A DNA stretch of 64,000 bases from an uncultured delta proteobacterium (lineage in GTDB: Bacteria > Desulfobacterota > BSN033 > UBA1163), in contig CAVPSJ010000017.1 in assembly GCA_963708295.1 (NCBI GenBank), positions 256,001 through 320,000 of the forward strand, written 5' to 3'. Of the stretch, positions 9,592 through 59,562 are shown in pieces; the first letter of the stretch is position 1; each line of letters opens with the position of its first letter. A program made the position numbers and the translations under genes. The notes beneath the pieces are model-generated. The model worked only from the letters and a program-made list of their open reading frames with translations, searched no databases and was not told where the DNA came from.

Positions 9592-9786
9592 GAGATCGAA
9601 TCTTTATCCTTTCCCTATATTTCACGAAAGTTTCCTTTTCACCCCAGACTTTTCCCCTGAAAACGAAGAAATATCTGCACCGCCACCCTGCGGATTTCTG
9701 ATTGGAATATACATATTTTATGAGAGTTGGTCAACCGAAACTTTCAGAAAAAAAAGAGTCAAAGAAGGTGGGCTGGTTGTTCCACC
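9592..9786 (-). repeat. Array repeat copy 1
   Basis: Matches consensus ..CCTATATTTCACGAAAG..GAAAACGAAGAAATATCTGCACCGCCACCCTG..GATTGGAATAT..TTGGTCAACCGAAACTTTCAGAA. Confidence 0.95.
9706..9734 (-). promoter_or_regulatory. sigma70-like promoter inside the repeat (example copy; present in most copies)
   Basis: Minus strand TTGACC-N17-TATATT; other copies have -10 variants TATACT or TATTCT with the same spacing. Confidence 0.75.
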
Positions 9787-9924
9787 TCCTACTAACCCAC
9801 GCCGTTGGTTTGCGGGGAGAAAACCAATTATTTATTGAAAGCAAAAACAGAGGTTCAGGATGAATAGACAACTTTTGCCTCGCTGTGGAGATACTGCATC
9901 CGTTCTTGCGAAAATGAAAGAAGG

Positions 9925-10957
9925 TTAAAAATCATTGATCGAATCAATAAGACTCCTGAGCCTGCCGAAGTCCTTGCGGTTAAAGTCTATCACAAGTCGC
10001 GGCAGATGAATAACATCCGCATCATCCATTTCAGCTTCCAAAGCCTCGGACGCCGCGATTCTTCCCCCGGGCAGAATGATGTCATGAAACTGATCTGTCA
10101 GCTTCTGGATGTCATCGGGGCCGAGCTGAGATGTGAGCCGGATCACGAGTTGGCCATGCACATACCGCATGCTGTGATAGCGGAAATAGAAATGCTGAAT
10201 CTTCTCCACCGCATCATCCACGGAACATACCCGTTCAAAGAGCGCAAAGTCCGATGGGCCAATATAGTTACGAGCCAGGAGCTCTTCCTCGAAGAGCTTG
10301 ATCAGGTGGGACCAGTAGGAACATTCAGGATCGTCCACGAGCACAAGCGGCATGGGATTGCGTTTGCCGGTTTGTACCAGGGTGAGCGTCTCCATCGCCT
10401 CGTCGAGCGTGCCAAAGCCGCCCGGGAAGAGCGCCACGGCATCCGCTTCTTTAAGGAAGGCAACTTTGCGGTTGAAAAAATATTTGTACGTGATGAGCCG
10501 CGGGTTACCCTCGATCACGGAATTCGGCTTCTCCTCGAACGGCAAGCGGATGTTCACACCGAAGGAATGCTCGGCGCCGGCTCCCTCGTTGACGGCCTGC
10601 ATGATGCCTCTTCCTCCGCCGGTGATGACCATATAACCAGTCTCAGCGAGCTTTTTCCCGAAGAGCTTTGCCATCTCGTAGATCGGATCGCCCGGCTGGG
10701 TGCGCGCCGAGCCGAAGACCGTGACCTTGCGAACATTCCGGTAGGAGCCGAAGACCTTGGAAGTGAACCGCATCTCCTTCAGCGTCGTGTTCATGAGCTT
10801 GAGGTCCGCGCCCTCGTCGTCCTCCTGCCCGGCCTTTGAGTGAGGCGATGATCATTTCGCGGACGTATTTCGGCCTCCGGATGCCCCCGGCGGTCTCCAT
10901 CAATTTCTCGATGATCTCGTCAATGGGACCGTTATTTTTTGTGAAATAAATTTTCAT
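9925..10957 (-). CDS. LOG-family (TIGR00730-like) protein, frameshift near 10835
   Basis: VTVFGSART, ITGGG.GIM and PGGFGTLDE motifs; N-terminus MKIYFTK.. lies in the adjacent frame. Confidence 0.9.
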
Positions 10958-11103
10958 GATTTCTCTGTTATCGTGTAGGTACCTGCTTTGATGATAAGCC
11001 TTTTTTAGTCTTTTTTCGAGAAAGATGATGGATTTTCCCCTCTGAACCGTCTCGCCCACTCCATAAAATGGGGACACATACCACTTTCCTTTTTGAGATC
11101 TCC

Positions 11104-11298
11104 GGGGTCGAATCTTTATCCGTAACTTTGCCTATATTTCACGAAAGTTTCCTTCTGACCTCAGGTTTTTTCCCTAAAGCGAAGAAATATCTGCGCCGCC
11201 ACCCTGTGAATTCCTGATTGGAATATATCTATTTTACGGAAATTGGTCAACCGAAACCTTCAGAATGGAAGATTCAAAGAAGCGGGCTGGTTGTTACA
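11104..11298 (-). repeat. Array repeat copy 2
   Basis: Full-length match from GGGGTCGAATC to GGGCTGGTTGTTACA. Confidence 0.95.
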
Positions 11299-11420
11299 AT
11301 TACAGAGAGCTATGAGGGCGGGGATTGCGTGTGAATAAGCCGTTTAAGCCCACCAATAAAACAGGTCAAGATTAGACGGCGCATTCTGCCCTTCATTCTC
11401 TCATCTCTAAAAATCTCTCC

Positions 11421-11948
11421 TCAATATCCCCCGGGATTGACAAGATCAATCATGACATACCCTAATCTTGGGAGATCCCTGTGCTCGAAGGGAAGAGGCA
11501 GTTTATATTTATACGGATCCGGAATCCCCGACTCGAATGTAAACGGAAAAACCGCTATGTTGCTTTCGTTACCCGTTTTGTCGAGAATGGAAACCTTTAA
11601 GGTAATGCTTGTCCACTCGCTGATATATCCAGCTTTTGAACTGTAGGTATTCCATTGAACATATCCTCGAAAGTGCTTCCGAAATTGCGGCTTGAGGTAG
11701 ATCCAATCGGTGGGGTAACGACCTTGGCCGGGCCCATCCGCCACTAAGGCGATTCTAAGCATATTTTCATCGGGATCGTCTGCCTCGATGTAAATTCTCC
11801 AGATATACCCGTAATATCCCTTCTCGACCGCAAAGGCATGGGTAATCACGGGTGCTCTCGTCTCTGATTTAGGTTGCGCCCATCCTGAAGACGCCATGAG
11901 GAGAACCAATAACAATGCACCGACAAAGTAAAGATTATTTTGATTCAT
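11421..11948 (-). CDS. Hypothetical secreted protein
   Basis: AAGGAG RBS, signal peptide, 175-aa ORF. Confidence 0.75.
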   Translation of the reverse strand: MNQNNLYFVGALLLVLLMASSGWAQPKSETRAPVITHAFAVEKGYYGYIWRIYIEADDPDENMLRIALVADGPGQGRYPTDWIYLKPQFRKHFRGYVQWNTYSSKAGYISEWTSITLKVSILDKTGNESNIAVFPFTFESGIPDPYKYKLPLPFEHRDLPRLGYVMIDLVNPGGY

Positions 11949-12131
11949 GCTCGCTCCTTAAACTAAAATTAAGAACTCAAAGTCTCAATTTCAAGGTAGT
12001 AAAAGGCGCTAAGATTGGGGGCAAACGAAGAGAGGTCGGGCTATCCATTTTGAAATAAGGCTAAGACCTTCTCCCACTCTTCACTTTGAGGTAACTCGAT
12101 TAAGTTGACGATGAGGAATGAAAATTTGCAC

Positions 12132-12161
12132 AAAAAAAGCAGAGCCAATTCTGACTCTGCT
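12132..12161 (-). terminator. Rho-independent terminator
   Basis: GCAGAG/CTCTGC stem followed by a T7 tract on the minus strand. Confidence 0.6.
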
Positions 12162-12419
12162 CTGCTCCTGCTCACTCAATCCTTAATTTAAACAAGATTT
12201 GTCTAAGTTCTTAGGTTCTATGTTTTCCCAGTCCCCCTTGCATAATCCACCATACCTTCAAAGTCAACGACAACCACGGACTCATCTCCAACCACCCAGG
12301 CGTCGTGCCCTGTCGGCAGCACGGGGACATCCACTGCTTGTACTCTATTTCGGTACCATCATCCATCCTTACCCTCAAAGTTCCGGATACGTGATACTGG
12401 AAATGAGGAAAGTGGTTCT

Positions 12420-12619
12420 GGAGTCGAATCTTTATCCTTGACTTTGCCGATATTTCACGAACATTTCCTTCTGACCCGAGGCTTTTTCCCCCTGAAAACG
12501 AAGAAATATCTGCGTTGGCGCCCTGTTGATTCTTGATTGGAGAATACAAATTTTATGAGAGTTGGTCAACCGAAACTTTCAGAAAGGAAGATTCAAAGAA
12601 CTGGGCTGTTTGTTTCACC
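12420..12619 (-). repeat. Array repeat copy 3
   Basis: Full-length consensus match. Confidence 0.95.
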
Positions 12620-12733
12620 TCGATTTCGCCAGGTATACCTTAGAACTTATTCTTGTCATCTCATCCACTTTACTCAGAGTTAAGGCTCGAGGGTAATAGT
12701 GTCAGTTAAGAGTCTGCTTAACTGTATATGCCC

Positions 12734-13885
12734 TTAAAGTTTCAAAACCTTTCTGGCGATGTTGACCCTCTGAATTTCTGAGGTCCCTTCCAGAATCTCC
12801 TCAAATTTTACCTCACGCCAGTAACGGGAGATCGGATATTCATCCATCAATCCGTATGCTCCATGGATTTGGACCCCCCTGTCAGCACATCGTTTGGCTG
12901 TCTCCGATGCAAAAATCTTTGCAAAAGTGGAAGTGGCAAAATAGTTCTCATCCTGATCTTTTTGCCAGGCAGCTTTATAAACCATCAATCTTGCTAATTC
13001 GATCTCCATCAACATGTCCGCCAACTTAAATCGAATGGCTTGAAATTCACCGATGTTTCTGCCAAATTGCTTTCTTTCCTTCGCATAAGCCAATGAAACA
13101 TCTAAGATGGCCTGAGCCAATCCCACAGAATGGGCAGCAAACCCAATTCGACTGGTCTGGAGAGCCATCAGAAATTGGGAGATTCCTTTATCGGGGTTCC
13201 CCAAAATATTTTCTTTTGGAATACGGCAGTCATCAAAAATCAGCTCCCTAGTCTCTGAGGACCGATATCCCATCTTTTTATACTTCTGCCCAAAATTGTA
13301 ACCGCCCACCCCTGTCGGGATGATGAAATTGGAAGCCTTCTTCTTTCCTTTCTCTCCCACCCCGGTCACGGCGGCAATGATTACCAGACTATTATGCCTA
13401 AGTCCTGCATTGGTGATGAATTGTTTGGTTCCGTTGATAACCCATTCATCTTCCTCCAAGACCGCTCTCGTCTGAATAGCACTGGTATCTGAACCCGCCT
13501 GAGGCTCCGTCAAACCAAATGCCCCAATCTTTTCCCCTGTGGCCAATGGCATGAGCCATTTCTTTTTCTGCTCCTCTGTTCCGAAGGTGCAGAGGAGATT
13601 CATCGCGAGCGTGACAGAATCTAAAAGGGAGTTTCCCAAGGAGGCATCTCCTCGACTGATCTCCTCGATGGCGATGATCATGGAAAGCCAATCTAATCCC
13701 CATCCTCCGCATTCCTGAGGAAAGGGAATGCCGCAAATCCCCAAATCGCCCATTTTTTTCCATACACCATAAGGGAATTGACCGGTTTTATCCAGCTCCT
13801 CTGCGATGGGCATAATTTCTTTTTTAGCAAAATTCCTGCACAAATCCTTGACCATCACTTGTTCAGCGGAAAGGTTAAAATCCAT
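12734..13885 (-). CDS. Acyl-CoA dehydrogenase
   Basis: GAFGLTEP.AGSD, INGTKQFITN, RKQFG, VQIHGAYG, ILEGTSEIQR. Confidence 0.96.
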   Translation of the reverse strand: MDFNLSAEQVMVKDLCRNFAKKEIMPIAEELDKTGQFPYGVWKKMGDLGICGIPFPQECGGWGLDWLSMIIAIEEISRGDASLGNSLLDSVTLAMNLLCTFGTEEQKKKWLMPLATGEKIGAFGLTEPQAGSDTSAIQTRAVLEEDEWVINGTKQFITNAGLRHNSLVIIAAVTGVGEKGKKKASNFIIPTGVGGYNFGQKYKKMGYRSSETRELIFDDCRIPKENILGNPDKGISQFLMALQTSRIGFAAHSVGLAQAILDVSLAYAKERKQFGRNIGEFQAIRFKLADMLMEIELARLMVYKAAWQKDQDENYFATSTFAKIFASETAKRCADRGVQIHGAYGLMDEYPISRYWREVKFEEILEGTSEIQRVNIARKVLKL

Positions 13886-14000
13886 ATGTTCTTCTCCTTA
13901 CATGGAAAATAGGTTTTGCCAAATCATTAATTCAAATCCGAGGGGATAAAATGATCGGGAGGAGTTAATGCATCCTGGGGACGGTCCTTATATTCTGATC

Positions 14001-14109
14001 GAAGCTCCCCGCCCACGGGGCGGGGCTTCCCGGCATTGTATAATATCATTCATATTGTGCCCCTTAACCCCGCCTATCCCGCAGGGAGCGGGACGGGGCA
14101 CGTTCCGGC
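14001..14109 (-). mobile_element. IS200/IS605-like miniature (PATE-type) element, copy A
   Basis: Reverse complement of the 46618-46714 element; two GC hairpins, ends GAAGCCCCGCCC..GGGCGGGGAGCTTC. Confidence 0.7.
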
Positions 14110-14168
14110 CAATGACAATTAGATACAAACTTTTTTATTGATCTCGCCATTTCCGATTATGAGTGTTA

Positions 14169-14364
14169 GAGGGCAAATCTTCATCCTTGACTTTCCCCAT
14201 ATTTCACGAACATTTCCTTCTGACCCCAGGTTTTTTCCCCTGAAAACGAAGAAATATCTACACCGCCACCCTGCGGATACTTGATGGGAATATACATATT
14301 CTATGAAAATTGGTCACCGAAACTTTCAGGAAAAGGAATAAAAGAAGCGATTTGTTTGTTACAC
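14169..14364 (-). repeat. Array repeat copy 4
   Basis: Full-length consensus match. Confidence 0.95.
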
Positions 14365-14486
14365 GTAATGTTCAACTCAGCATAGTTTGTGAAGCCAACC
14401 GCTATAAAGATGTTTTTTGACAAAGAGTTGTCGATAGGATTTGGGGTTACCCATTTGTTCCCCATTTGTTACAAGGGGTCATTTAG

Positions 14487-14909
14487 TCACTGACTCCCGT
14501 CCGTCGCTGCAAGTCTTTTTAAAATCTCTTTTATCATGCCGTTTCTGTCCTTCCGGATTTCTCCTGCAAGCCGATGAACACGTTCCGGAATTTCGAAATA
14601 TTCGTTACCCCATAAGATGATTTCAAAGAGGATAGGCATGAGATCGATCCCCTTGGGAGTTAATTGGTAAAGGTTTTTTGCCTTATTTCCGGGAAAGGCT
14701 CTTTTTTCGACGATCCCGTTCTTTTCCAGAGTGAGTAGACGATCGGCAAGGATATTCGTCGCGATCTTTTCTTCGGATTGCAAAAACTCGCCGTACGTTC
14801 TTTTTCCTTTGAACATCAGGTCCCGTATGATCAGCAGTGTCCACTTATCGCCCAAGATGTCGAGAGTGGTACTGATAGGACACGTCGATCTCCTGGTGAG
14901 TTTCTTCAT
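14487..14909 (-). CDS. HxlR-family winged-helix regulator
   Basis: RSTCPI..LDILGDKWTLLIIRDL..Y.LT.KG.DL.P. Confidence 0.92.
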   Translation of the reverse strand: MKKLTRRSTCPISTTLDILGDKWTLLIIRDLMFKGKRTYGEFLQSEEKIATNILADRLLTLEKNGIVEKRAFPGNKAKNLYQLTPKGIDLMPILFEIILWGNEYFEIPERVHRLAGEIRKDRNGMIKEILKRLAATDGSQ

Positions 14910-15056
14910 ACTTAAAGAATATACGAATTACTTGCATAAAACAAGTAGATGTTTTATATTACTTGCAATTCGCAAGTATGTCGCCGGGAGAACTCATGGT
15001 CATAAAGCCGGATATGTGCTTCAGAAAATTGATTGTCAGAAGGAGGAGTTATGGTT

Positions 15057-16094
15057 ATGGAAAACAAAATACGGGAAAAGGCTCTGAAACTTGGATACGA
15101 GGACTGCGGTATTATTAGAGTCGGCGCCTTGGCCGGTTATCGCGAAAAGCTGGAGGAGCGCATCTCGCGGATACCCATGGGAGAGAAAATATATGGGCGC
15201 TATAGGAGTTATGCGGACCCCTCGGCGGATAATCCCGAGATAAAATCCATCATCGTCGCTATCGTTCCTACCTACAGGTACAACGTGCCCGGCGAATTCG
15301 ATGGCGTCTACGGCAAGGCCTACATGTTCGATGGCAGAACGGACGAACAGGCGCCCTTTTTCAGCAAACGCAGGGAATTCTCCACGTTTCTCGAAAGCCT
15401 CGGTCTTACATGCATGTTGGGCAGCAGTTTTGGAATCCCGGCGCCAGCCCGCTGGGCAGCGTATCAGGCAGGGCTCGGCATCATCCGCCAGAATAATTTC
15501 TTCTACACCAAAAACGGGTCATATAATCACATAGAGATGTTCGCAGTAGATCGGGAGCTCGAACTCATTCGCGACGTGAAACTCAAAGAGTGCTCGAAAG
15601 ACTGCAACAAATGCATCGGAGCCTGCCCTACCCATACGCTGAGCGCACCCTATACCATGTCGATGATCGGGTGTGCTAGCTTTCAGACTTCCATCTCGGC
15701 GAATACGGGAATGGCCGTACCATCTCCTGAGATGACGGAGCAAATAGGTTGCAGGCTGTACGGCTGCGACGTTTGCCAGGACGTATGCCCCTTTAATAAG
15801 GGCAAATGGACAGGCGGTGAGGACTTCCCGGGGCTTGAGGCGCTGGCGCCGTCAATGCGCCCGGAAAGTATCATGGAGATGAGCTATGATGAGATCGGCC
15901 GCACGTTGGCTCCCAAATATTGGTACATAAAGCCGGAAAACCTCTGGAAATGGAAACTGAACGCGCTGACCGTCATGATGAATGGCTACAGCGAGAAATA
16001 TGAAGCGCCAATAAAGCTCGGGCTTGAAGACCCCAACGAAACTGTGCGCGACTTCACGCGCGGCATCTGCTCGAAGCTGGGAATATCGTTTTAA
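15057..16094 (+). CDS. QueG-like (epoxyqueuosine reductase family) 4Fe-4S dicluster protein
   Basis: AGLG.I..N, C..C..CI.ACPT and YGCD.CQDVCPFN motifs; divergent from the HxlR gene; AGGAGG RBS. Confidence 0.8.
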   Translation: MENKIREKALKLGYEDCGIIRVGALAGYREKLEERISRIPMGEKIYGRYRSYADPSADNPEIKSIIVAIVPTYRYNVPGEFDGVYGKAYMFDGRTDEQAPFFSKRREFSTFLESLGLTCMLGSSFGIPAPARWAAYQAGLGIIRQNNFFYTKNGSYNHIEMFAVDRELELIRDVKLKECSKDCNKCIGACPTHTLSAPYTMSMIGCASFQTSISANTGMAVPSPEMTEQIGCRLYGCDVCQDVCPFNKGKWTGGEDFPGLEALAPSMRPESIMEMSYDEIGRTLAPKYWYIKPENLWKWKLNALTVMMNGYSEKYEAPIKLGLEDPNETVRDFTRGICSKLGISF

Positions 16095-16155
16095 GGCGTG
16101 TATTCTTCTCTCTCCACGATCCTGTTCCGTTTTTGTATTAAACGGAAAAGGGTCC

Positions 16156-16295
16156 GGGTCGAACCTTCTTATATTTCACAACAGTCTTCTTCTGTGCGCA
16201 GGGTTTTTTCCTGAAAATGAAGAAACATTTGCACCGCCACCCTGTTGATTCTTGATTGGAATATACAAATTTTGCGAAAATTGGTCAGCCGAAAC
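16156..16295 (-). repeat. Array repeat copy 5 (degenerate, right-truncated)
   Basis: Core GCACCGCCACCCTG..GATTGGAATATAC..TTGGTCAGCCGAAAC. Confidence 0.9.
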
Positions 16296-16330
16296 AACTA
16301 AAGCTGCACGACCCTTTGCATCGTCCTGTA

Positions 16331-16978
16331 TTATTTGGTTGGTTGGACTGTTTTTGCCAAAGATATTGGAGAACCCTTCATCTGTTTCCTATCGTTACCG
16401 TCAAAATAACTTCCAGTAAGCAAATCTTGGAACATTTCCAAACGGGCCGAGTAAAAAACATGCCCCTTAGACAGAAAAACGAGATAAACTATTTTCCCTG
16501 AGACAACCCCTTTAATATCATAATCACCAATGGCTCCACTTACCTTACCTTGTTCTTGGCGTAGGTAGCCTTCGCCCCAAGTGAAGAAACCACTCCCTTG
16601 TACATCGTGCCATCTTCCAGTAACGTCTATTTCCGATGGCTTACCACCTGATATTGTATTGAGCCAAGGATCAATTTGCAGAGGGTCGGACTGCTTATTC
16701 TCTAAATCTGGCTGTACATAATATTCTCTTTTATTTATTAGCTTTCCATTCTTATCGAAAGTTATATCTACACACATTGTATATGGCTGGTAACTAAACG
16801 ATCTCCGCCCAGTAAAATAATAGTAGTAAATAGTTTTATCATCTACTATTTCTTTCTTTGCTGGTGGCCCGTACTTCTGTTCGACTCTGGCTTGGTTCCA
16901 TTCTGCACATCCCGATAAAAGACTTATCAAAATCACTGTGATAATCGCTGTCAGTCGCACTGAGAACCTTTTTTCCAT
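16331..16978 (-). CDS. Hypothetical lipoprotein
   Basis: Signal peptide with LSGC lipobox. Confidence 0.75.
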   Translation of the reverse strand: MEKRFSVRLTAIITVILISLLSGCAEWNQARVEQKYGPPAKKEIVDDKTIYYYYFTGRRSFSYQPYTMCVDITFDKNGKLINKREYYVQPDLENKQSDPLQIDPWLNTISGGKPSEIDVTGRWHDVQGSGFFTWGEGYLRQEQGKVSGAIGDYDIKGVVSGKIVYLVFLSKGHVFYSARLEMFQDLLTGSYFDGNDRKQMKGSPISLAKTVQPTK

Positions 16979-17049
16979 AAGTCACCCCCAAAAAAGCAGA
17001 AAAGATCGAGGAGGATATATTTTGTGATAAGAGGCCATTTGTACTCAAA

Positions 17050-17187
17050 GTGAAGAAAGATCGACGTCGCCACCCTGTCTGGATTGTCGATTGATGATTG
17101 TTGTTTGGAATATACAAATTCTGTAAAAATTGGTCAACCGAAACTTTCAGAATGGAAGATTCAAAGAAGTGGGCTGTTTGTTACACC
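17050..17187 (-). repeat. Array repeat copy 6 (left-truncated, heptamer-expanded)
   Basis: CGCCACCCTG..TTGGAATATAC..TGGTCAACCGAAACTTTCAG..GTGGGCTGTTTGTTACACC. Confidence 0.92.
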
Positions 17188-17245
17188 TCGTGTCTTTACT
17201 CTAAGTGGGTCAGAGAAATAGAATTCGAACCCAACCTTAATTTCT

Positions 17246-18068
17246 CTAACGCCATTCTACCGCCGGTGGATTCCTCAGTGGCATCCGCACAAACTTGAGT
17301 TTGGGGTATCCGACCATCAGGACTCCGAAGCACTTGTGACCTTCCGGTAAGTTCAGGGCTTCCACCAAAGGTGGATAAAAAATTGTTGCGGTCATCACAT
17401 ATCCCGCCCAGGTTGTCCCCAGGCCCAAAGGCAGTGCAATCAATTCTGCGTAGGCGAGGGCTAAGACGCAATCCACCTGGGCCAACCGAGCGTTTTCAGC
17501 CGCATGAGCGATAATGAGGTGCGGGGCATTGCGGCATATTGGATCTTTTCCCCCATCCCATAATGCAACCACCCGATCGAAATGAAACGTTTTAGCCAAA
17601 GCCGGGGCCTCTTTGATTGTCACACGCATCCAATCCACGACCAAGCCTGAAAGGCGCCTTACCTCTGTCTTATCCTCAATTACCAAAAAATGAACCGGTC
17701 GGGCATTGTGTGCGGACGGAGCATAGCCTGATACTTGAATGAGTTTGTTTAGCTTGTCACGTTCAACAGGGTCGTCCTTGTAATTTCGAATGGAGCGTCT
17801 TGATCGAAGAAACTGTTCAGCTTGCTCCAGATCGATGAGCAGCTCTTTCCTGATTTGAGGACAATCTTCGGGCCTCATGGTATGAAGTGCCAGTGCCCCA
17901 GAGGGACATACAGCCACACAGTGACCACAGTTGATGCATAACTCTTCGGCATCAGCTATCAGGGTTGGCACCGAGTCCTGCTTCCCCCATCTCGATCAGT
18001 CTCCGGCCACAAGCCTCCACACAGATCCCGTCCCGGTTGCACTTCTCTGGGTCAACATAAAAAAGCAT
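17246..18068 (-). CDS. Nitroreductase with N-terminal ferredoxin domain, frameshift in a G run near 17987
   Basis: MLFYVDPEKCNRDGICVEAC..CINCGHCVAVCP..RRSIRNY..APSAHN..GLGTTWAG. Confidence 0.9.
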
Positions 18069-18100
18069 TTCATCCTCCGTTTGATGCGAGTTCTTAATGG

Positions 18101-18227
18101 TGAAAACGAAGAAATATCTGCACCGCCACCCTGGGGATTCTTGATTGGAATATATCTATTTTATGAAAATGGGTCAACCGAAACTTTCAGAAAGAATGAA
18201 TCAAAGAAGCGGGCTGTTTGTAACACC
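18101..18227 (-). repeat. Array repeat copy 7 (left-truncated)
   Basis: Right two-thirds of the consensus. Confidence 0.93.
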
Positions 18228-18394
18228 ACATAGAGTGAAGATTGGTTATTAAAGGTATTGAAGATTTACAATTGGAAAAGATACTAGAATGTATACAGGG
18301 GGTGGTAAAATGGATCCAACGTGTATTCTCCGCAGTCGATGAATCTTTTGCAAAGAAGTAATCAGCGTATTGAAACGAAAATGTCCGGTATTTG

Positions 18395-18970
18395 TCAACG
18401 AAGACTGAATAGTTCTTTCATGCAGGACCAAGCTTCTGGTGAAGACCAATCCCTTTGTCCTATAATCTTTCCTACCAATATCCCTTCTTGATCGACTAGA
18501 AATATTTGAGGAACCCAACCCCTTACTCCATATTGGTCCATCGTCTTTTCCTTCAAGAGTAAGAGGACGGGAAGGGTGATCTTGTTTTGATCGATGATCT
18601 TTTGAGCGGCTGTCTTTCTTTCTCCATCAATGGTAATAAAAAGGAAAACTAACTTATCTCTTTTACCTTGGGAGAATTTTTCAAGAGCTAACAGCTCTTC
18701 TCTGCAAGATTGTCACCAGGTGGCCCAAAATACGATGAGAACAGGTTTCCCTCTAAAGTCACTAAGAGAAATTTGTTTTCCATCCAGCAACTCCTTGAGT
18801 GAAAAAGCAGGAGCTTCTTTCTTTTCCTGAGATCTCTGAACACCAAAAGAATTACAGGACGGACATTCCGGTGGAGAGGGAGAAGCAGCCCTTACGATCT
18901 GAAGGCAAGGGATGAGCATAATAGTCATTCCTATCACGATTGAAAGCGAAAGAACGATTCTTTTTTTCAT
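18395..18970 (-). CDS. TlpA/redoxin-family thiol-disulfide oxidoreductase, selenoprotein (UxxC)
   Basis: APAFSL..ISLSDFRGKPVLIVFWATW-TGA-QSC; frame stays open 105 further codons (..VPQIFLVDQEG..IIGQRDW); hairpin 13 nt after the UGA. Confidence 0.88.
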
Positions 18971-18985
18971 CTCCACCTCCCCAAA

Positions 18986-19468
18986 CTATCTCCTTCTCTT
19001 ATGAAGAGTTGCGGCTCCTTTGGCACCCCAAAGGTAAAACCATCCATCAAGTTTCGATTCACCCTCGATAATGGAACGTTTCGATTCACTTTCAACGAGG
19101 GAAAATTCAGCGAAATTCCCTCCTCGACCCCTAATAATGAGGCCACCTTTATCCGTAACGGTACCAGTATCAAAGTAGCTCTCCCACTCGCTGCCTTCGA
19201 ACCCACCCGGAAAGATATTGGCTGCCTCTCTGGGGATATTTTGAATGGATACCTTCCCTTTTAATGGAAGGGAGTTATTGTAAATGTCTAGGGTCGCCGT
19301 AGTGCGAATACGTTCCGCAAAAATGGCCGAACCTTCCCATCTCCCTTCCAAAATCGACAAATTGTTTTTTGTGAGGATTGTTGTAGTTGTTGGAACTGTG
19401 ACACACCCCGCTATAATTCCCTCCACCAAGAGTAGTAGCACAGCAATTAAACAAGGAATTGTTTTCAT
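18986..19468 (-). CDS. Hypothetical lipoprotein
   Basis: IAGC lipobox; directly upstream of the selenoprotein gene. Confidence 0.7.
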   Translation of the reverse strand: MKTIPCLIAVLLLLVEGIIAGCVTVPTTTTILTKNNLSILEGRWEGSAIFAERIRTTATLDIYNNSLPLKGKVSIQNIPREAANIFPGGFEGSEWESYFDTGTVTDKGGLIIRGRGGNFAEFSLVESESKRSIIEGESKLDGWFYLWGAKGAATLHKRRR

Positions 19469-19670
19469 ACTTATTCTCCCTCTTCTTTCAATATTGCCAT
19501 TCTACTTGCCATTGTAGTAAATCTCATAACCGATGTCCATTAGCTTTTTGTCCAATAGGAGTATCGAAGAAGATTCAAGGAAGAAACATTATGAAGAAGA
19601 ATAAATAGAGGGAGGTTGCTGGAAAATTATTACTTTACAGACGTAGTATCGCTCCGCGCAGTTATTGAAA

Positions 19671-19864
19671 GCGAATCTTTACTCTTCACTTTGCCTATAT
19701 TTCACGAAGGTTTCCTTCTGACCCCAGGCTTTCTTCCTGAAAACGAAGAAATATCTACACCGCCACCCTGCGGATTCCTGATTGGAATATATCTATTTTA
19801 TGAAAATTGGTGAACCGAAACTTTCAGAAAGAACGGGTCAAAGAGGTGGGCTGTTTGTTACACC
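19671..19864 (-). repeat. Array repeat copy 8
   Basis: Near-full consensus match. Confidence 0.95.
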
Positions 19865-19892
19865 AAAGCGATTTCTTGACTCGATCCTCCGT

Positions 19893-20399
19893 TCACCATA
19901 TGAATCTTAATCTTTCTCTCCATGTCTTTGGCAGAAGATTCCCCACAGCTTTCCAGTGACGGACCTCAGAAGGCGCGCACATCACGACCGCCGCAAAGAA
20001 TATCATTGGAAGGTCAAGGAAGATGGTTACAGAGGCCAATGTGTCTCCGAACGCTCCAAAACAACCGCAATCAACGCTACGCCCTTGTAAAAACACAATG
20101 GCCTTGGCAATGAAAAAAGATAAGCTCAGCAGGCCAATCCCCAAAGCCGATAATCGGGTTAACACTCCGAAAAGTAAACCTAATCCACACAGCAGTTCAA
20201 TGAAAGGCAAGGCCAGCCCAAAAGGACGGGCTAAATAGAAGGGCAGGATAACAAAGAAGTAAACGGCCTGCACCGAGTAACGCTCAATATCAACCATTTT
20301 CCCAAAGGCCGCTACAAGAAAAGAAACTGCCAATATCAAGCGAAAGCAGAGAACAACGGTTTTTGCGGTTTTCTTACGTGAATTTTGAATCATATTCAT
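19893..20399 (-). CDS. DoxX/MauE-family membrane protein
   Basis: R.ILA..FL.AA..K, LP.IEL..GL.L and DCGCFG motifs. Confidence 0.88.
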   Translation of the reverse strand: MNMIQNSRKKTAKTVVLCFRLILAVSFLVAAFGKMVDIERYSVQAVYFFVILPFYLARPFGLALPFIELLCGLGLLFGVLTRLSALGIGLLSLSFFIAKAIVFLQGRSVDCGCFGAFGDTLASVTIFLDLPMIFFAAVVMCAPSEVRHWKAVGNLLPKTWRERLRFIW

Positions 20400-20503
20400 C
20401 TCCTCGCCCTATTTCCTGTCGCTATTAGAAAATCAAGCGATTGGGCATCAATATTGAATTGGGAAAGAATTTGGGTATAGGTCTACACTTTTCACTGGGC
20501 TAC

Positions 20504-21762: not shown

Positions 21763-21772
21763 TCAGAACATC

Positions 21773-22479: not shown

Positions 22480-22481
22480 TC

Positions 22482-49946: not shown

Positions 49947-50084
49947 ATCTCTACCTCCTTTTCAAAATTTTCACTTGTTTTTGCTTCTGTACTAAAAGGG
50001 ATATAACAATGACTGAATATGATGTGCATATTTACCAAAAATAGTCAATCGAGAAGTTCAGGAACCAATAGGGTAGGTGGTTCT

Positions 50085-50284
50085 GGGATCGAATCATTAT
50101 CCTTGACTTCGTCTATGTTTCACGAACGTGTCCTTCTGACCCCAGGTTTTTTTCTCTGAAAACGAAAAAATATCTACGCAGCCACCCTGTGGATCCCTGA
50201 ATCGAATATATCTATTTTATGAAAGTCGGTCAACCGAAACTTTCAGAAAGAACACGCTAAGAAAGGGGGCTGTTTGTTAACGCC
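50085..50284 (-). repeat. Array repeat copy 24
   Basis: Full-length consensus match. Confidence 0.95.
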
Positions 50285-50392
50285 TACAAGTCTTTGCTCA
50301 AGGTCCGAAGATGACGAGCTGAAAGTGAGGATAGGGTCCGGGTTGAGTGGACGCAAACCCGCAATTCAATTCTTGAAACGGTGTCCGGCGGG

Positions 50393-53650: not shown

Positions 53651-53884
53651 CCTACATCGCCACCCGGTTGATTTCTGATTTGAATATACAAATTCTATGA
53701 AGATTGGTCAACCGAAACTTTCAGAAAGAAAAAGTCAACCCTTCGACTCCGTGGCCTGGAGGTCGGTGCTCTTGTTCGACCCAATCTCAGCCGACGGGCT
53801 CAGGGTTGACTGAACGGCGCTTCGTACCTTCACCGGTGCTTGGCGCCGCCGAACGGGTCAAAAAGGGGAGCTGGTTGTTTAACC
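53651..53884 (-). repeat. Array repeat copy 25 (left-truncated, interrupted)
   Basis: CGCCACCC..TTGGTCAACCGAAACTTTCAGAAAG..GTCAA|insert|..GCTGGTTGTT. Confidence 0.88.
53739..53861. mobile_element. 123-bp palindromic insertion flanked by GTCAA direct repeats
   Basis: GTCAA at 53734 and 53857; inverted repeat GTCAACCCT/AGGGTTGAC; REP-like CCCTTCGACTCCG..CTCAGGG arms. Confidence 0.6.
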
Positions 53885-54277
53885 TGCAAGTCCTCACTGA
53901 AAGATAATCTTGCAAGTTTGACCATCACGAATAGAAAGCAAGCAGAGGGAGCGAAATAAAAATGTTACCTTTTTGGAAGGGTAACTTCGACACAGAGGAG
54001 GGCGAGGATAAAAAAAGCATACAAGCTTTTTTCCATTGGCCAGCGAGGCGGGGGGGGGTAGTGAAGTGAAAGTCACAGGAAGGAACCACACATTTGGTAA
54101 ACCTGGGGACGGCCCTTACATTCTGGTTCAATAACGAAATGAGACACACACTCACTCTCGTCCGAAGGAGGAGTCTCAACGCAGAGACGCAAAGGACGCG
54201 GAGGAACTGATTTTAGCCACCCTGAACGAAAGCTCCAGGGAAGTAGTTCAATGGGCGTATTTCCCCGGAGCTGGTTT

Positions 54278-54958
54278 TCAGGAAATATTCTCTTTGTTCC
54301 CTTTCACAAAGGCATTCAACGTGGAAAGAATACTTCTCACATTTACAATGTAGACCCTGGATTTGATGCCGTTGCCCCGATGGTATTTGCCAAAATCCTT
54401 CCCGAAGAACTTATAGACATGGCAGGTTAAAAAGATATTGATCGATGGATCCAAGAGTTGGTGGGGCATCAATCCAAAGTCCTTGCCCCAGTGCTCCCAA
54501 TTGATCTGTCCGAGACCGTAGTCGCCGGTCTCCTTGTTGATGCAATCCTCTCTGAAATTGCTTTCGGCCATAATGATCGCAATGATTTCAAGAGGGTTTA
54601 CGCCATTTTTCTGGGAAGCATGGGAGATCAAACCGGCATACCTCAACAGTTTAGCTTCGGGAAGCTGGTTTCCGGTAATGAACCGAATCACATTCGCCAG
54701 ATGCAGAACTTCCTTCACGCTGGAATCGGAGGATTTTGTGATGGAAAGAAATTCCTCCATTCCGGCTGGAAAGTCCGTTCGCAGGCTCTTTTGGGCCAGA
54801 GGCGCAATATATTCGAGCACGAAAAAAGCGGTAACGGCCACGAGGAAGACGACTTTAACAGATTCCAGGACGGTGTGGAGAATCATCCTTTTCTTAAATT
54901 TCGAGTTAAAGTCATGCACCGAGTTACACGTAATCACATGGATGTTGAAAAGCTTCAT
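54278..54958 (-). CDS. SLT-domain lytic transglycosylase-like protein
   Basis: AII.AES.F, DYGLGQIN, LLDP.INI. Confidence 0.82.
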   Translation of the reverse strand: MKLFNIHVITCNSVHDFNSKFKKRMILHTVLESVKVVFLVAVTAFFVLEYIAPLAQKSLRTDFPAGMEEFLSITKSSDSSVKEVLHLANVIRFITGNQLPEAKLLRYAGLISHASQKNGVNPLEIIAIIMAESNFREDCINKETGDYGLGQINWEHWGKDFGLMPHQLLDPSINIFLTCHVYKFFGKDFGKYHRGNGIKSRVYIVNVRSILSTLNAFVKGNKENIS

Positions 54959-55006
54959 TCCCCCTCCTCCTCTTTCAAAATATCCATTCCCTTCATTTAG
55001 TTATGA

Positions 55007-56281: not shown

Positions 56282-56371
56282 TTTCAGGTATTTCGTCTCC
56301 ACATTCTCTCCGGATTGGGGCTTCAAAGGCAATGCAATATCTCGCTTAAGTGCATTCGAGTTTCCCATTCA

Positions 56372-56494
56372 GGAAACGAGGAAATATTTATGCCCACACC
56401 CTGTTGATGGTTGATTGGAATATACAAATTTTATGAAAATTGGTCAACCGAAACCTTTTCAGCAACAAAGACTCAAAGAGGTGGGCTGTTTGTT
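56372..56494 (-). repeat. Array repeat copy 26 (left end apparently displaced to stub at 55940)
   Basis: Right two-thirds of the consensus; GGGGTCGAATTTTTA lies on the far side of the GIY-YIG gene. Confidence 0.9.
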
Positions 56495-56530
56495 AGGATT
56501 ACCAGTAGAAAAGTTGAAAGGAGGATAAAT

Positions 56531-56990: not shown

Positions 56991-57920
56991 CTACTTGTTG
57001 CGGGATTTATTCTTGAGTTTTTGAGCCACTGCGAGAACGGTGTTGGCATAGATGGAACTCTTGTTGTAACGGAGGATCACTTCGCGCTGAGTGCCTTTAT
57101 CCATGGTGACCTTCCAGCCGTGCTCCCGCAGATAATTGGCAATGCTGTAGGAGGCATCGGCCTTTGTAAAGAGATCGATGCGGCCGTCATGATCGGCGTC
57201 TACTCCATAGGATAAGATATTGGAGGGTAAAAACTGGCAGAGGCCAATTGCTCCGTAGATGGAACCCGGAAAAGTCAACGGGTCGAATTCACTCTGGTTG
57301 GCATACAGGATCAGGGCTTTGAGCTCTGCGTAGGCCCAATCTGCTTTTTTCCGGCAGATGGTTCTGGCAAAGTCTTCATTCCCGGGATTGATCAGTTTTC
57401 TGGGAAGGTAAGGCCTAACGGTTTCGAGGTCTGCGCTGAGTGCCATGGAAGCCAGAGTATTGAAAGCCCGCTTCCCTCCCACGCTATCCCCGAGGTGGGT
57501 TTCCACCAGAAGTATGGAAACGATGATTTCCTTGGGCACGCAGTATTGATGGTTGATGTTTTCCAGAAGCTCTGCGTTCTCCTGGAGGTAAGAGTGCGCT
57601 TGGGCTATCACATTTTCTTTCAGATAACATGAATAGACAACTTTTGGATTGTCGGAGGGAAGTCTTGGCACTTTTTCCATCAACTCCTTGAGCTTGCTGG
57701 ACATGGGAGACGGCTCAAACGTTACCTCAGCCCGGGAGAAAAGAATCCGTACGGTGGTCTCATCAAAACCATCGGCTACTAAACGGTCAATAACAGGAGA
57801 CCAGTCGGCGAACACCCAGCAAGGCGATAATAGGAGGGCGGTGAGGACTGAGACGAATAGGAGCATCCTGAATCTTAGGTGAACTGTTGTTTGGTGCATA
57901 TCCCAATATCCTGATTTCAT
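56991..57920 (-). CDS. mltB: MltB-family lytic murein transglycosylase
   Basis: IIVSIL.VET..G, GS.YGA.G.CQFLPS, D.D.DGRIDL, SIANYL..HGW, YN.S..Y. Confidence 0.88.
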   Translation of the reverse strand: MKSGYWDMHQTTVHLRFRMLLFVSVLTALLLSPCWVFADWSPVIDRLVADGFDETTVRILFSRAEVTFEPSPMSSKLKELMEKVPRLPSDNPKVVYSCYLKENVIAQAHSYLQENAELLENINHQYCVPKEIIVSILLVETHLGDSVGGKRAFNTLASMALSADLETVRPYLPRKLINPGNEDFARTICRKKADWAYAELKALILYANQSEFDPLTFPGSIYGAIGLCQFLPSNILSYGVDADHDGRIDLFTKADASYSIANYLREHGWKVTMDKGTQREVILRYNKSSIYANTVLAVAQKLKNKSRNK

Positions 57921-57951
57921 GGAGGTCCAAATCTCTTATGGGTATGGTATT

Positions 57952-57967
57952 TGCAACTTTGGTGCCG
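57952..57967 (-). promoter_or_regulatory. sigma54 promoter of the mltB-like gene
   Basis: Minus strand CGGCACCAAAGTTGCA (GG-N10-GC). Confidence 0.6.
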
Positions 57968-58243
57968 CATTTTTGTAGCACCGTAACTATTTGTTATTAT
58001 AAATTTATCTTGAACTGCCCGATATTTTAACCAAACTCAAAATTGAAAGGCTTTTCCACAAAAGTCCCGAATTACTTCCCCTAAAGGGGAAGATCTGTTT
58101 TCATTTCTTGTTGTGGGTCGAGGGGATTGTTGATTATCAGAAATCTGGCGAGAAGTGTAGATTCCTAACTTGACGGCTTCAGGAAATACTTCCGACCGCA
58201 GGCCCTTTCACGTTTCAAGGTCAGCGGGGAGGGAGGGTTGGAC

Positions 58244-58663
58244 TCAGATATAATCCTCCCACTTCTGTCCTGTGTCGACCAGGGGTCTAATATCATAGAC
58301 TTCAAATTCTACCGCGGCGTAGATGGCCTTTGCTGCCTCCTCTGAAACTCTCGCAGCAACCTGTTTTCGAAAAGCAATCAGTTCATCTCCCTCGGTCTTG
58401 TAACCGGTCATTCTTAGATAAACTCTGAGTCCCCTCCATTCACTGGTGGTCTTTCCTGGCTCCATAATCATAAAGACAGCGTAAGGGTTCTCCTGAAGGT
58501 TAGCAAAGGTCCGGTTCTTTCTTGTTGCCATGATGACTCTTTTTTCACCTGTCATCCTGGGAGAGCCGAAAATAGCTACATTGACCCGTCCGTCTTTCTC
58601 GGCTGTACTGAGCGAACCGAGCCTGGGCATCTTGTTAAAATATTCCATCAGTTTTGCTGACAT
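58244..58663 (-). CDS. Pyridoxamine 5'-phosphate oxidase-family (FMN split-barrel) protein
   Basis: LSTA..DG.VNVA..GSP..RT..NL.ENP.A. Confidence 0.85.
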   Translation of the reverse strand: MSAKLMEYFNKMPRLGSLSTAEKDGRVNVAIFGSPRMTGEKRVIMATRKNRTFANLQENPYAVFMIMEPGKTTSEWRGLRVYLRMTGYKTEGDELIAFRKQVAARVSEEAAKAIYAAVEFEVYDIRPLVDTGQKWEDYI

Positions 58664-58701
58664 AAAACCCTCCTTCCGTACCAATTAAGCAAATGATTGT
58701 A

Positions 58702-59436
58702 TTATTCTGCCTTCCTCGAATGTGTCCCGATGGTCCAGTTCCTCGTTCTTTTTACAAAATCCTTTACCTCATTTTCATCCCTGAAATCCCCTTGGCCGCA
58801 ATCATCATAATGAACCATCTTTTTCGGATCCCTCATGAACTTCTCACTGGGATGAAGGGCAGGGTAGCCAATGGCCATCATGTCATAAGGCTCCATCTCG
58901 ACCGGAACTCCCAATAGATCCTTTACCATGCAACTTGTGAAGGGAGTGGTGACCGCAGATACCCACTGAGAGGCCAATCCCAGGGTGGCAGCGGCCAAAT
59001 GCATGTATAAAAAAGCACTGGCAAGGCTTGAGGTGAAAGTCAACTGGCAACGATTTTGATCATACCTGAGGCCCATCGGGAGTCCTACCTTGGTTCGGGT
59101 ATCCCCAAGAAGGATGATGAACACAGGCGCTGTGGTAAAATCCATTCCCGCGTCGAGTACGCCCGAAGTCGTCCAGGGTTTTCCCTGCCAGGATTCTCTG
59201 GTGCCCTCCATGCTTTTTGCCAGTTTCCAATATTCGCCGATATATTCAACAATCTTTTTCCTCAGCTCCGGCTTTTTAACCACGACAAACTCCCAAGGTT
59301 GCAGGTTGAAACCCGATGGCGCCCAGCGGGCAACCTCAATGATCTTGTCTATGGACTCATCAGGGATCGGGTCCGGCTTGAAACGACGTATACTCCTTCT
59401 CTTTTTCACCAGCGTCAGCAGGCTATCGTAATCCAT
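58702..59436 (-). CDS. Nitroreductase-family protein
   Basis: RRSIRRF, ARWAPSG.N.QPWEF, LAA..LGL.SQW, IGYP. Confidence 0.92.
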   Translation of the reverse strand: MDYDSLLTLVKKRRSIRRFKPDPIPDESIDKIIEVARWAPSGFNLQPWEFVVVKKPELRKKIVEYIGEYWKLAKSMEGTRESWQGKPWTTSGVLDAGMDFTTAPVFIILLGDTRTKVGLPMGLRYDQNRCQLTFTSSLASAFLYMHLAAATLGLASQWVSAVTTPFTSCMVKDLLGVPVEMEPYDMMAIGYPALHPSEKFMRDPKKMVHYDDCGQGDFRDENEVKDFVKRTRNWTIGTHSRKAE

Positions 59437-59470
59437 GCCAATCTCCTTCTTTTTATCCCCTGTCATTCTC

Positions 59471-59562
59471 TTGGAATATATCTATTTTATGAGAATTGGT
59501 CAACCGAAACCTTCAGGAAGGATGAGCCAGAAAAATGAAGGGATTTGGGGTCAACTCTTTAC
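59471..59562 (-). repeat. Array repeat copy 27 (promoter part only) plus left-end stub at 59547
   Basis: TTGGAATATATCTATTTTATGAGAATTGGTCAACCGAAAC; then GGGGTCAACTCTTTAC. Confidence 0.88.

Follow-up and report, generated by a model that had tools for sequence, protein, structure and literature searches.

The stretch of DNA considered here (the window: 64,000 nucleotides, C17:256001-320000 in the genome of an uncultured delta proteobacterium of sulfate-reducer type from soil or wetland, here G000, which comprises 4,946,535 bases in 20 contigs) carries an array of repeats, all in the same orientation, between which lie unrelated gene-sized units. We read this locus, with slightly more confidence than doubt, as a sedentary array of mobile gene cassettes, integron-like in its build and made from different parts. 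When a profile of the repeat, based on 12 full copies, was run with nhmmer over the whole G000 genome (cut-off E<=1e-3), 29 matches were obtained, 27 of which fall inside the window, all 27 on the + strand and spanning 9585-59536; only two others exist, both partial (C4:588194-588312 on the - strand and C12:110637-110708 on the + strand). The repeat is ~205-215 nt long and recurs every 0.83-4.65 kb, the copies diverge from one another by 15-35%, and 15 of them are near full length (profile positions <=13 to >=201), the other 12 being truncated at one end or both. A first-pass annotation of the sequence had already described such a co-oriented array, and the mapping confirms it in the clustering as well as in the single orientation of the copies, which chance cannot explain. 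Each of the 27 positions given there has a profile match, 25 of them within ~15 nt; at 46597 a match is present but starts at 46711, and the copy placed at 18101 starts at 18024 in the profile search, where its 5' part is non-homologous, and at 18111 by repeat finding. Its consensus agrees with that of the aligned copies and, as it had stated, the flanks hold no copy (1-9584 and 59537-64000), a related repeat of another family, type B, being found at 7257-7320.

Read on the + strand, the repeat starts with a part T (GGGGTCGAATC-TTTATCC-TTGAC, a 9-8-9 inverted repeat), which is followed by a leader block with a small variable hairpin and the strongly conserved GAAAACGAAGAAATATCTGCACCGCCACCC, and then by GATTG heptads whose number varies from copy to copy. 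Next come a part P (TTGGAATATAT...ATGAAAATT), a 5' arm H5 (GGTCAACCGAAACTTTCAG), a loop of ~30 nt and a 3' arm H3 (GGGCTGTTTG), after which stands TTA CACCTAC AAgTC. H5 and H3 can fold into a weak hairpin of 10 pairs (~56 nt), whose foot is made of AAC and GTT; 89% of cells retain the pairing. The minus-strand reading of P and H5 is TTGACC-17 nt-TATATT, in which the hexamers and the spacer length are conserved and the spacer sequence is variable. The -35 and -10 boxes, with their fixed 17-nt spacer, are among the best-conserved columns of the repeat, together with a 30-nt leader block and two CGAAAnTTTC palindromes, one beside the -35 box and the other ~105 nt downstream in the leader. A consensus scan calls this minus-strand promoter in 12 of the 13 repeats within 9000-28999, and the sequence has the hexamers, a spacing within 16-18 nt, the conservation and the downstream gene by which sigma-70 promoters are recognized; hairpin and promoter also occur in the solo copy at C4:588194-588312, ~75 nt ahead of a Shine-Dalgarno sequence and an ATG. 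The earlier description of the repeat as non-coding holds in the sense that no open reading frame (ORF) is conserved across the copies, but it overlooked this promoter-like element. As for structured RNAs, Rfam 15 gave no match at gathering score in the window (only two chance-level matches at E<=1 in 6300-9900), a tRNA/tmRNA scan of the window found none, and a candidate leader helix, TGGGGTC/GACCCCA, failed a by-eye comparison of the aligned copies.

The copies, all on the + strand and located by their profile matches, begin with copy 1 (9585-9794; near full length, profile 4-216, E=2.6e-61), whose minus-strand promoter TTGACC-17-TATATT lies at 9734-9706; being the leftmost, it ends the array in the gene sense, with no gene downstream of its promoter. 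Full length are copies 2 (11099-11314; E=4.9e-67, minus-strand promoter at 11250-11222), 3 (12412-12639; E=3.8e-64, also supported by the promoter scan), 4 (14162-14370; HxlR and a 4Fe-4S protein at 14474-16102 as its right cargo), 8 (19662-19876; right cargo DoxX/MauE, 19891-20443), 14 (29481-29701), 15 (32046-32255), 18 (40826-41041), which abuts the stop codon of a minus-strand gene of the class A beta-lactamase family (41041-41985), 19 (42011-42235), 20 (44333-44559; right cargo cupin-HTH), 21 (45509-45726) and 24 (50077-50302). Alignment additionally shows that copy 5 (16152-16345) has its T part partly deleted and its hairpin 3' arm missing, that the 5' part of copy 7 (18024-18242; profile 12-223) is the non-homologous one mentioned above, and that copy 9 (20497-20707) has an expanded GATTG heptad run and one leader hairpin deleted. 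Copy 6 (17038-17192; profile 75-213) is without its first ~70 nt, and the 3' arm is missing from copies 10 (21594-21762; profile 4-170), whose right cargo is a + strand PIN toxin-antitoxin pair, and 16 (33712-33874; profile 3-168). Copies 11 (22726-22790; profile 99-149, with a stray T-like motif at 22846-22867) and 13 (26122-26211; profile 92-181) are fragments, copy 17 (38359-38435; profile 141-215) is the hairpin part alone, and copies 22 (46711-46821; profile 28-137) and 23 (48353-48475; profile 6-130) keep the 5' half only, while copies 12 (23935-24116) and 26 (56360-56504) cover profile positions 8-177 and 71-213. In copy 25 (53652-53893) the profile match (53652-53738, positions 99-185) is followed by a 3' arm that resumes at ~53851-53893, the loop holding an insert of ~125 nt with a strong 79-nt hairpin (53733-53811) on a perfect 10-bp foot, AGTCAACCCT/AGGGTTGACT. 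The rightmost, copy 27 (59458-59536; profile 110-191), consists of promoter and 5' arm only and is placed between the stop codon of a gene for a 917-aa protein and the start of the ORF at 58702-59466.

Between them, 26 cargo segments of 0.6-4.5 kb (9795-59457, mainly minus strand, defined by ORFs and Pfam) carry one to three genes each. The Pfam families recognized comprise LOG, acyl-CoA dehydrogenase, HxlR, nitroreductase, DoxX, PilZ, PIN toxin, MFS, two S15 peptidases, carboxylesterase, ABC-GGDEF, methyltransferase, the class A beta-lactamase family, cupin-HTH, thioesterase-like, HbpS-like, Usp and an OYE-type reductase; several cargo proteins belong to no family, and an NCBIfam search with eight unknown ones matched none of the eight. 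The units are tightly trimmed, ~10 nt past the stop codon and 45-65 nt ahead of the start codon. The gene closest to the right-hand repeat is a minus-strand gene in 23 of the 26 segments, where it runs in the direction of that repeat's promoter. The repeat is therefore not the mere separator that had been described: within it lie a sigma-70-like promoter and a leader that point to the cargo, most of whose genes are on the opposite strand to that on which the repeat was read. From the directions of promoters and genes, the order in the gene sense is stop codon, hairpin, promoter, leader and next gene. Just past the upstream stop codon come the boundary motif (the reverse complement of ...GTTTG TTA CACCTAC AAGTC) and the weak, imperfect 56-nt hairpin, then the sigma-70-type promoter TTGACC-17-TATATT with a CGAAAnTTTC palindrome beside its -35 box, and finally a leader of ~125 nt, with variable CAATC heptads, the second palindrome and the terminal 9-8-9 inverted repeat. 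With such an arrangement, one regulated promoter would be present in a separate copy for every cassette and drive its transcription, and the cassettes would not depend on one promoter heading the array.

Some cargo segments show peculiarities of their own. Two overlapping ORFs (9925-10794 and 10643-11077) make up the LOG/lysine-decarboxylase-like gene (9925-11077, minus strand), which is likely frameshifted or a pseudogene. One segment holds tandem paralogous genes without a confident family (33930-36200 and 36109-38121, minus strand; 756 and 670 aa), 71-86% identical in DNA blocks. A 126-nt stretch occurs in two copies, 81% identical: that at 38111-38236 overlaps the start of the ORF at 36109-38121 and extends ~115 nt upstream of it, and that at 62561-62686 lies just outside the array, upstream of the gene for the 917-aa protein, which has deacetylase, caspase and TPR domains.

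Such arrays are not confined to G000. With copy 8 as BLAST query and matches counted at E<=1e-6, the repeat was found in 24 of 54 other genomes of the same family, including 11 of 14 congeners; the matching contigs are labelled as Thermodesulfobacteriota, 'delta proteobacterium' or Syntrophales metagenome genomes, and the repeat-bearing genomes of the family come mostly from wetland, peat and soil samples. According to profile searches, the near-complete genome G010 (2 contigs) has four arrays of ~62, 6, 9 and 18 kb, each internally co-oriented, and G003 has two arrays and solo copies; in every locus retrieved with at least two copies, those of G010 and G003 included, all copies lie on one strand. 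In every segment of the repeat, the identity between copies of one genome equals that between genomes for G000 and G010, the copies of G003 being somewhat more alike; concerted evolution is ruled out in G000 and G010, within-genome likeness being no higher than between-genome likeness. A literature search, supplements aside, found no description of such arrays.

Single cargo segments are found again in the arrays of other species, with identities of 86-97%. At least 12 cargo blocks of the window are present in such arrays at 81-95% identity and beside different neighbours: 14169-16102 in G010 at 90% and 14474-16102 in G003 at 95%; the DoxX/MauE block 19891-20443 in two other contexts at 89-92%; 21734-22467 at 87%, 32289-33377 at 93% and 46030-46587 at 93% in other arrays; the cupin-HTH block 44420-45504 in three other contexts at 90-93%; and 54247-54988 and 56991-57910 in other arrays at 89-91%. 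The identity of rpoB is 83% between G000 and G010 and 85% between G000 and G003, and the flanks of the window (1-6600 and 59600-64000) have no comparable DNA in five congeners, bar one gene match at 67-69%. Cargo identity above that of rpoB, in combination with the shuffled contexts, indicates horizontal exchange of single cassettes. Among 229 non-redundant copies of the repeat, 24 pairs have the right cargo in common and 10 the left cargo, and no pair has both. Judged by these comparisons, cassettes move horizontally one by one between the arrays of different species, which establishes an exchange and neither its direction nor its date. Of the growth by repeated acquisition next to a duplicated end sequence that had been proposed, acquisition of one unit at a time is thus implied, but a duplication of the end sequence is not demonstrated.

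The alignments also tell where the units join. On the H3 side, the shared cargo starts at or just past ...GTTTG; in pairs with common right cargo, the identity in variable columns is 0.83 past GTTTG, versus a background of 0.52 (p=2.5e-5), and 0.74 versus 0.59 in the 3' half of the loop (p=3e-4), and it is at background level in the leader. On the other side, homology ends 5-90 nt short of T in some pairs, and in three left-sharing pairs the cargo homology continues through T, in one pair as far as H5. On this evidence, the cassette junctions map to the hairpin end of the repeat; the breakpoints of individual pairs vary (around columns 125-175, within the loop, or around 201-204), and no single crossover base is fixed. 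A linkage to the right cargo that fades gradually into the repeat, with no stop at one base, would also be compatible with a system devoid of a dedicated recombinase, in which the repeat is the reused regulatory module (a 'mobile promoter' plus operators) of one regulon and units are exchanged by homologous recombination between repeats after DNA uptake from relatives. The position of the best-conserved columns (the promoter boxes, the two palindromes and the 30-nt leader block) agrees with this, and so does the likeness within genomes, no higher than that between them, which fits selection for function and not recent copying; moreover, near-identical promoter groups before unrelated genes are described in the accessible text of PMC3575422. 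The mobile promoters of that text have in common with the present repeat one promoter region before unrelated genes, but they are dispersed, whereas the repeats here are clustered, co-oriented and tied to cassette boundaries. Strict clustering and one orientation in every array examined would not be expected from a reused regulatory module, and homologous exchange would find no shared sequence on the far side of the cargo, where homology ends before the repeat is reached. Furthermore, the leftmost copy has no gene to drive, the cargo is trimmed in a cassette-like way, and the conserved ~20-nt motif of the boundary seems to be used by a mobile recombinase unit as well (see below), all of which makes this explanation quite improbable.

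A more trivial origin, a chimeric contig in which the reads of many strains or species were joined via the repeat, has also to be weighed. G000 is 91% complete with 5.6% contamination and in 20 contigs, and the metagenome contigs of three DNA runs cover the window only in pieces, with many repeat-to-repeat joints; these (e.g., 14233>16210 and 19737>20556) have short sides, were placed at 90% likeness and may stem from other copies or organisms. Of 24 public sequencing runs listed, 20 hold at most 32% of the sampled words of the window; the four runs aligned to it consist of short contigs, and contigs from RNA libraries cover parts of some cargo genes without starts or strand. Neither these contigs nor the joints speak for or against excision or transcription. 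The same architecture is, however, present in independent assemblies, among them the 2-contig genome with its 62-kb array and one of 10 contigs; a divergence of 15-35% between copies is far too much for assembly collapse, the orientation is uniform, and no sign of chimerism was seen in composition or coverage. An artefact of this kind is consequently very hard to believe in. Among the known repeat classes, clustered regularly interspaced short palindromic repeats (CRISPR), which are 20-50 nt long with spacers of similar size, do not fit an array with repeats of 205-215 nt, a spacing of 0.83-4.65 kb and genes between copies, and neither do miniature inverted-repeat transposable elements (MITEs) or dispersal of the repetitive extragenic palindrome (REP) type, marked by terminal inverted repeats and a spread over the whole genome in either orientation, with 27 of the 29 genomic matches at one locus and on one strand. 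On CRISPR, the first-pass annotation was right.

The comparison with integrons is less straightforward. An integron attC site is 57-141 nt long when folded and is marked by L boxes, an unpaired spacer and pairing ends of the form RYYYAAC...GTTRRRY. In the present family, the integron integrase IntI scores over the curated cut-off in 21 of 55 genomes (with fragments in G000, G010 and G003), and canonical attC sites of 58-91 nt stand beside it, the same genus included. A scan for RYYYAAC...GTTRRRY hairpins gave two to nine matches in each of four IntI-bearing loci and one in three more (both strands counted); in the 64-kb window it gave no strict match and a single relaxed one, the insert at 53733-53811 in copy 25. 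Similarly, an attC covariance model (R1) built from 10 canonical attC sites of the family found, as a control, five non-seed attC sites at E<=0.035 and on the expected strand beside IntI in three loci (L039, L044 and L045), and none of the repeats: there was one chance-level match in 64 kb with default filters, and with filters off 0 of the 16 repeats in 9000-34000 were matched. The hairpin of the repeat pairs at four of the seven R-box positions and has no L-box helix. As far as these models go, the array is not a canonical integron, which was the claim of the first-pass annotation; that claim stands for canonical attC sites, but integrons as such had been dismissed too quickly, given an AAC...GTT hairpin 3' of the gene in an IntI-rich family.

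It is indeed conceivable that the array is what remains of a true integron, namely attC sites clustered without an integrase (CALIN). Its 56-nt hairpin would then be a diverged attC site recombined by IntI in the past, or still in trans, and its promoter-leader the conserved 5' part of the cassettes. The co-oriented array of compact cassettes that move individually is what is found in integrons and CALINs, and the hairpin has the right size and position, 3' of the gene; its gene-sense start GTGTAACAAAC resembles the canonical GCCTAACAAAT, so that an integron ancestry is possible, and its end is GTTGACC. The cargo, compact, mostly of one or two genes and in one orientation with a reversed toxin-antitoxin pair, is also as in chromosomal integrons. 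Nor is an integrase needed nearby: in the accessible text of PMC4889954, such clusters are frequent in genomes without IntI, and 95% of CALINs have no intI pseudogene in their vicinity. The present arrays, though, have no IntI around them, whereas in a complete integron the integrase gene (TIGR02249) adjoins the array, with attI. A tblastn search for IntI in 102 array-bearing and control loci gave no match, neither IntI nor any other tyrosine recombinase is encoded near the arrays of G000, G010 and G003, and the window has no match to PF00589 or TIGR02249, the nearest on contig C17 being fragments more than 70 kb away. The only IntI in G000 is an 87-aa fragment (C4:1007421-1007618; 86 bits, positions 250-315), full-length IntI within the genus is confined to genomes with 0-3 copies of the repeat, and the seven genomes with at least 13 scored copies have IntI fragments, one partial gene or none. 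Taking this along with the failure of the attC model, the hairpin scan and the box pairing, we regard a remnant of this sort as unlikely.

What the array has in common with chromosomal integrons and CALINs (as these appear in the accessible text of PMC4889954) is, nevertheless, considerable: a long co-oriented array, compact, unrelated and mostly promoterless-looking cassettes, one conserved repeat per junction 3' of the gene, an AAC...GTT-flanked imperfect hairpin that ends the repeat, cassettes shared singly between species, and no integrase nearby. The differences lie in the parts. The repeat is 205-215 nt long and not 58-91 nt as the attC sites of the family, it is invisible to the attC model, its R and L boxes are unpaired, there is a promoter and leader in each junction, and the recombinase that co-occurs with it is an Xer-like pair and not IntI.

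As for the enzyme, the first-pass annotation placed it outside the window, which agrees with the results: no recombinase is encoded in or beside the array, and a candidate is located elsewhere in the genome. Neither HUH nor tyrosine recombinase genes were found at the ends of the window array, of the four G010 arrays (for one of them, within ~1.1 kb per side) and of the two G003 arrays; no gene family recurs at the ends of these seven arrays, and Y1/HUH transposases and serine resolvases are absent from the vicinity of the arrays in G000, G010 and G003. The array of the window is flanked by a 417-aa protein (8269-9522) without Pfam or NCBIfam family and by the 917-aa deacetylase-caspase-TPR protein; the former was rejected as the enzyme, for it has no family, no relative beside other arrays and no second copy in G000. 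Elsewhere in G000, the IntI fragment adjoins a 335-aa ORF with a weak Y1/HUH transposase domain (C4:1008279-1008599), and about seven ORFs of this weak kind, of ~320-338 aa, are scattered over the genome.

The candidate is a mobile unit of two adjacent tyrosine-recombinase genes, with three copies in G000 (on C8, on C5 and at the start of C12) and four in G010, where it measures 2.1 kb. Its proteins, of 360 and 306 aa, have catalytic and SAM-like domains and score best against Xer-type models, below every curated cut-off. The unit is bounded by 5' CACCTAC-CTATACGTAAC ... GTTACGTATAG-CACCTAC 3' and, if circular, would have a perfect 11-7-11 core, GTTACGTATAG-CACCTAC-CTATACGTAAC; these ends are identical in six genera, with proteins that are only 55-88% identical. 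At the array boundary, the consensus is GTTTG TTA CACCTAC AAgTC, in which CACCTAC is the heptamer seen most often (an exact match in 14 of 120 copies), the next most frequent ones having one or few differences from it. A core site of the dif/Xer type has two inverted recombinase-binding arms of ~11 nt on either side of a central region of 6-8 nt; the boundary has the 7-mer of the unit and a conserved context of ~20 nt, without the arms of the unit. With a position matrix of the 20 nt ahead of the boundary heptamer, the C8 copy of the unit scores 14.0, a value reached by none of 260 other genomic CACCTAC sites (p<0.004), and two G010 copies give p=0.008 and p=0.012; three of the 14 unit copies stand directly behind a sequence like the hairpin 3' arm (binomial 5e-4). 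Across 54 family genomes, repeat and unit are both present in 12, the repeat only in 12, the unit only in three and neither in 27 (Fisher p=0.0018, in a statistic that treats related genomes as independent). Whether the Xer-like pair is the enzyme of the arrays is, in our judgement, about an even bet, the link being circumstantial. A separate observation on the unit is that at G000:C8:162450-165868 and C5:98775-102192 it was copied with an extra 1.3 kb ending in a diverged promoter and 5'-arm repeat fragment (…AATCAACATTTCAGGAAGAA); the joint duplication suggests that the unit and one cassette-like neighbour moved as one piece.

Put together, these elements outline how such an array could work. 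The exchange would most likely be a site-specific recombination in the region of CACCTAC, where the repeat ends in its hairpin, with an enzyme acting in trans, for which the Xer-like tyrosine recombinase pair on the 2.1-kb mobile unit (G000:C8, C5 and C12) is the candidate. Recombination between two directly repeated sites of the array would release a circle of one cargo and one repeat, and this circle could enter any other such site; in this way, cassettes would be captured and shuffled at the ~20-nt site …GTTTG TTA CACCTAC AAGTC…, and the junction repeat that came with each of them would provide one and the same regulated promoter and leader. All cassettes of the library, with several arrays per genome of up to ~62 kb and at least two repeat families, might then be expressed or silenced together, and not according to the distance from one promoter.

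Several observations weigh against the locus being such a cassette array, or against its proposed enzyme. In three segments, only + strand genes lie by the promoter (HxlR/4Fe-4S, the PIN pair and ABC-GGDEF), where it would run antisense. The body of the repeat is poorly linked to either cargo (leader columns 0.49 versus 0.58 in six left-sharing pairs), and two well-conserved left-sharing pairs have unrelated repeats, which means that one crossover point per repeat cannot explain all pairs. The hairpin is weak: single whole-copy DNA folds give z = -2.7 and -2.3, the consensus fold of 15 copies reaches -3.3 kcal/mol with one compensatory pair in 22, and covariation cannot support it, the 5' arm H5 being invariant. 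In the contigs of public runs, which are short and unsuited to show them, neither transcript starts nor excision circles nor products of recombination were seen. Regarding the recombinase unit, the other 11 of its 14 copies are not behind repeat-like sequence; its 11-nt arms are absent from the window (0 matches at up to three mismatches), the array site is not palindromic around CACCTAC, and no more than those 14 of 120 copies have the exact heptamer. Half of the repeat-bearing genomes (12 of 24), the array-rich G012 among them, are without the unit, and among the 18 genomes whose repeats were scored only once this link had been proposed, the co-occurrence was 2/4 versus 4/14 (p=0.57). We still incline, by a little, to the sedentary array of mobile cassettes, integron-like in build and different in its parts. 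The fuller proposition, an undescribed gene-cassette platform of a Syntrophales-like Thermodesulfobacteriota lineage, parallel to but independent of integrons, with a ~20-nt site, an Xer-like pair in trans and a shared promoter, is one that we put forward tentatively and would sooner doubt than assert.

The main repeat is not the only one of its kind. Type B, single-copy in the window (7257-7320, + strand), has the core GATGTCAATATTTAAGTCTGACCCCAG and shares short blocks with the main repeat (CCTGGGGTCAGA and a promoter-like TTGAAA-16-TATGGA); it forms arrays of its own, with a spacing of 1.3-4 kb, at G010:C2:1.397-1.410 Mb (L150, L151) and G003:C3:1.176-1.184 Mb (L152). Another repeat is present in seven copies between small genes at 7035-13400 of locus L042 (G011:C108), 5.5 kb downstream of an intact IntI that lies at the contig edge. 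It has an invariant core, CCAACTTTTTT.TGGA, and runs of CAATAAC heptads, has only a T-like motif and a CCAAC...TTTT block in common with the main repeat, and is detected neither by the family attC model nor by the main profile. As a tie between the repeats and IntI this array is unusable, for its genes face the other way and the likeness is limited.

Other non-coding elements were noticed in and beside the array. To the left of copy 4, 13971-14160 is a short element with 71-74% matches beside repeats in G010; its summed depth in wetland metagenome contigs is ~1100-1700, versus tens to a few hundred elsewhere, with many loose ends, and it is probably another small repeat family. Probably a MITE is the ~250-nt element at 6800-7050, with terminal inverted repeats TTTCACCGCAGAGCCGCAGAGA ... 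TTCTCTGCGGCTCCGCGGTGAAA, of which G010 and other congeners contain dozens of copies, 64-84% identical and in both orientations. Four congeners (G004, G009, G010 and G012) each have, in one copy and at 88-93% identity, the non-coding stretches 7057-7243 and 6611-6673, whose neighbouring genes are without DNA match; their counterpart in G010 lies 16 kb before the largest array, they have no Rfam match, and they may be a conserved RNA or regulatory element.

Among better known systems, the superintegron of Vibrio cholerae offers a precedent in its repeats (VCR), a long, species-specific kind that was first noticed as an intergenic family between unrelated co-oriented ORFs. VCRs are true attC sites of ~120 nt located beside intI, whereas the present arrays have no IntI, no attC signature and several representatives per genome. 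The pdif modules of Acinetobacter plasmids, with sites of 28 bp in alternating orientation, illustrate exchange of the Xer/dif type, and Tn554 is an element with paired tyrosine recombinases. As in Xer/dif modules, Xer-like enzymes encoded away from the cargo may act here on short core sites, and the candidate unit has an 11-7-11 core like dif, whereas here the repeats are direct and set in a 205-nt module, the array site is without the arms of the unit, and the recombinase pair forms a 2.1-kb mobile unit. Module exchange of this type is reviewed in PMC9771954, and other elements with paired tyrosine recombinases are the 'integron-like elements' of Pseudomonas (PMC4542609) and strand-biased circularising elements (PMC9345347), as the accessible parts of these sources present them. 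Vibrionaceae superintegrons contain, according to the accessible text of PMC11014356, gene-less cassettes that bear promoters and which, like the repeats here, relieve the dependence on a single array promoter. In that text the promoters come from occasional separate cassettes, while here there is one in every junction repeat.

The arrays are common in this lineage, and their cargo is rich in unknowns, in addition to metabolic, signalling, toxin-antitoxin and beta-lactamase-family genes. To our knowledge, integrons are the one well-understood route by which bacteria store and shuffle single-gene cassettes, and two of their puzzles are the expression of cassettes far from the single promoter and the origin of cassettes and sites. 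The array points to another solution, in which every junction has a promoter and leader of its own and an integrase is neither adjacent nor apparently required. Were the Xer-like pair truly its enzyme, this would be a new way of capturing genes site-specifically, at a target that is short and defined, and it would matter for the biology of mobile elements, for the annotation of metagenomes (in which tools of the IntegronFinder type may miss such arrays) and possibly as a recombination tool.

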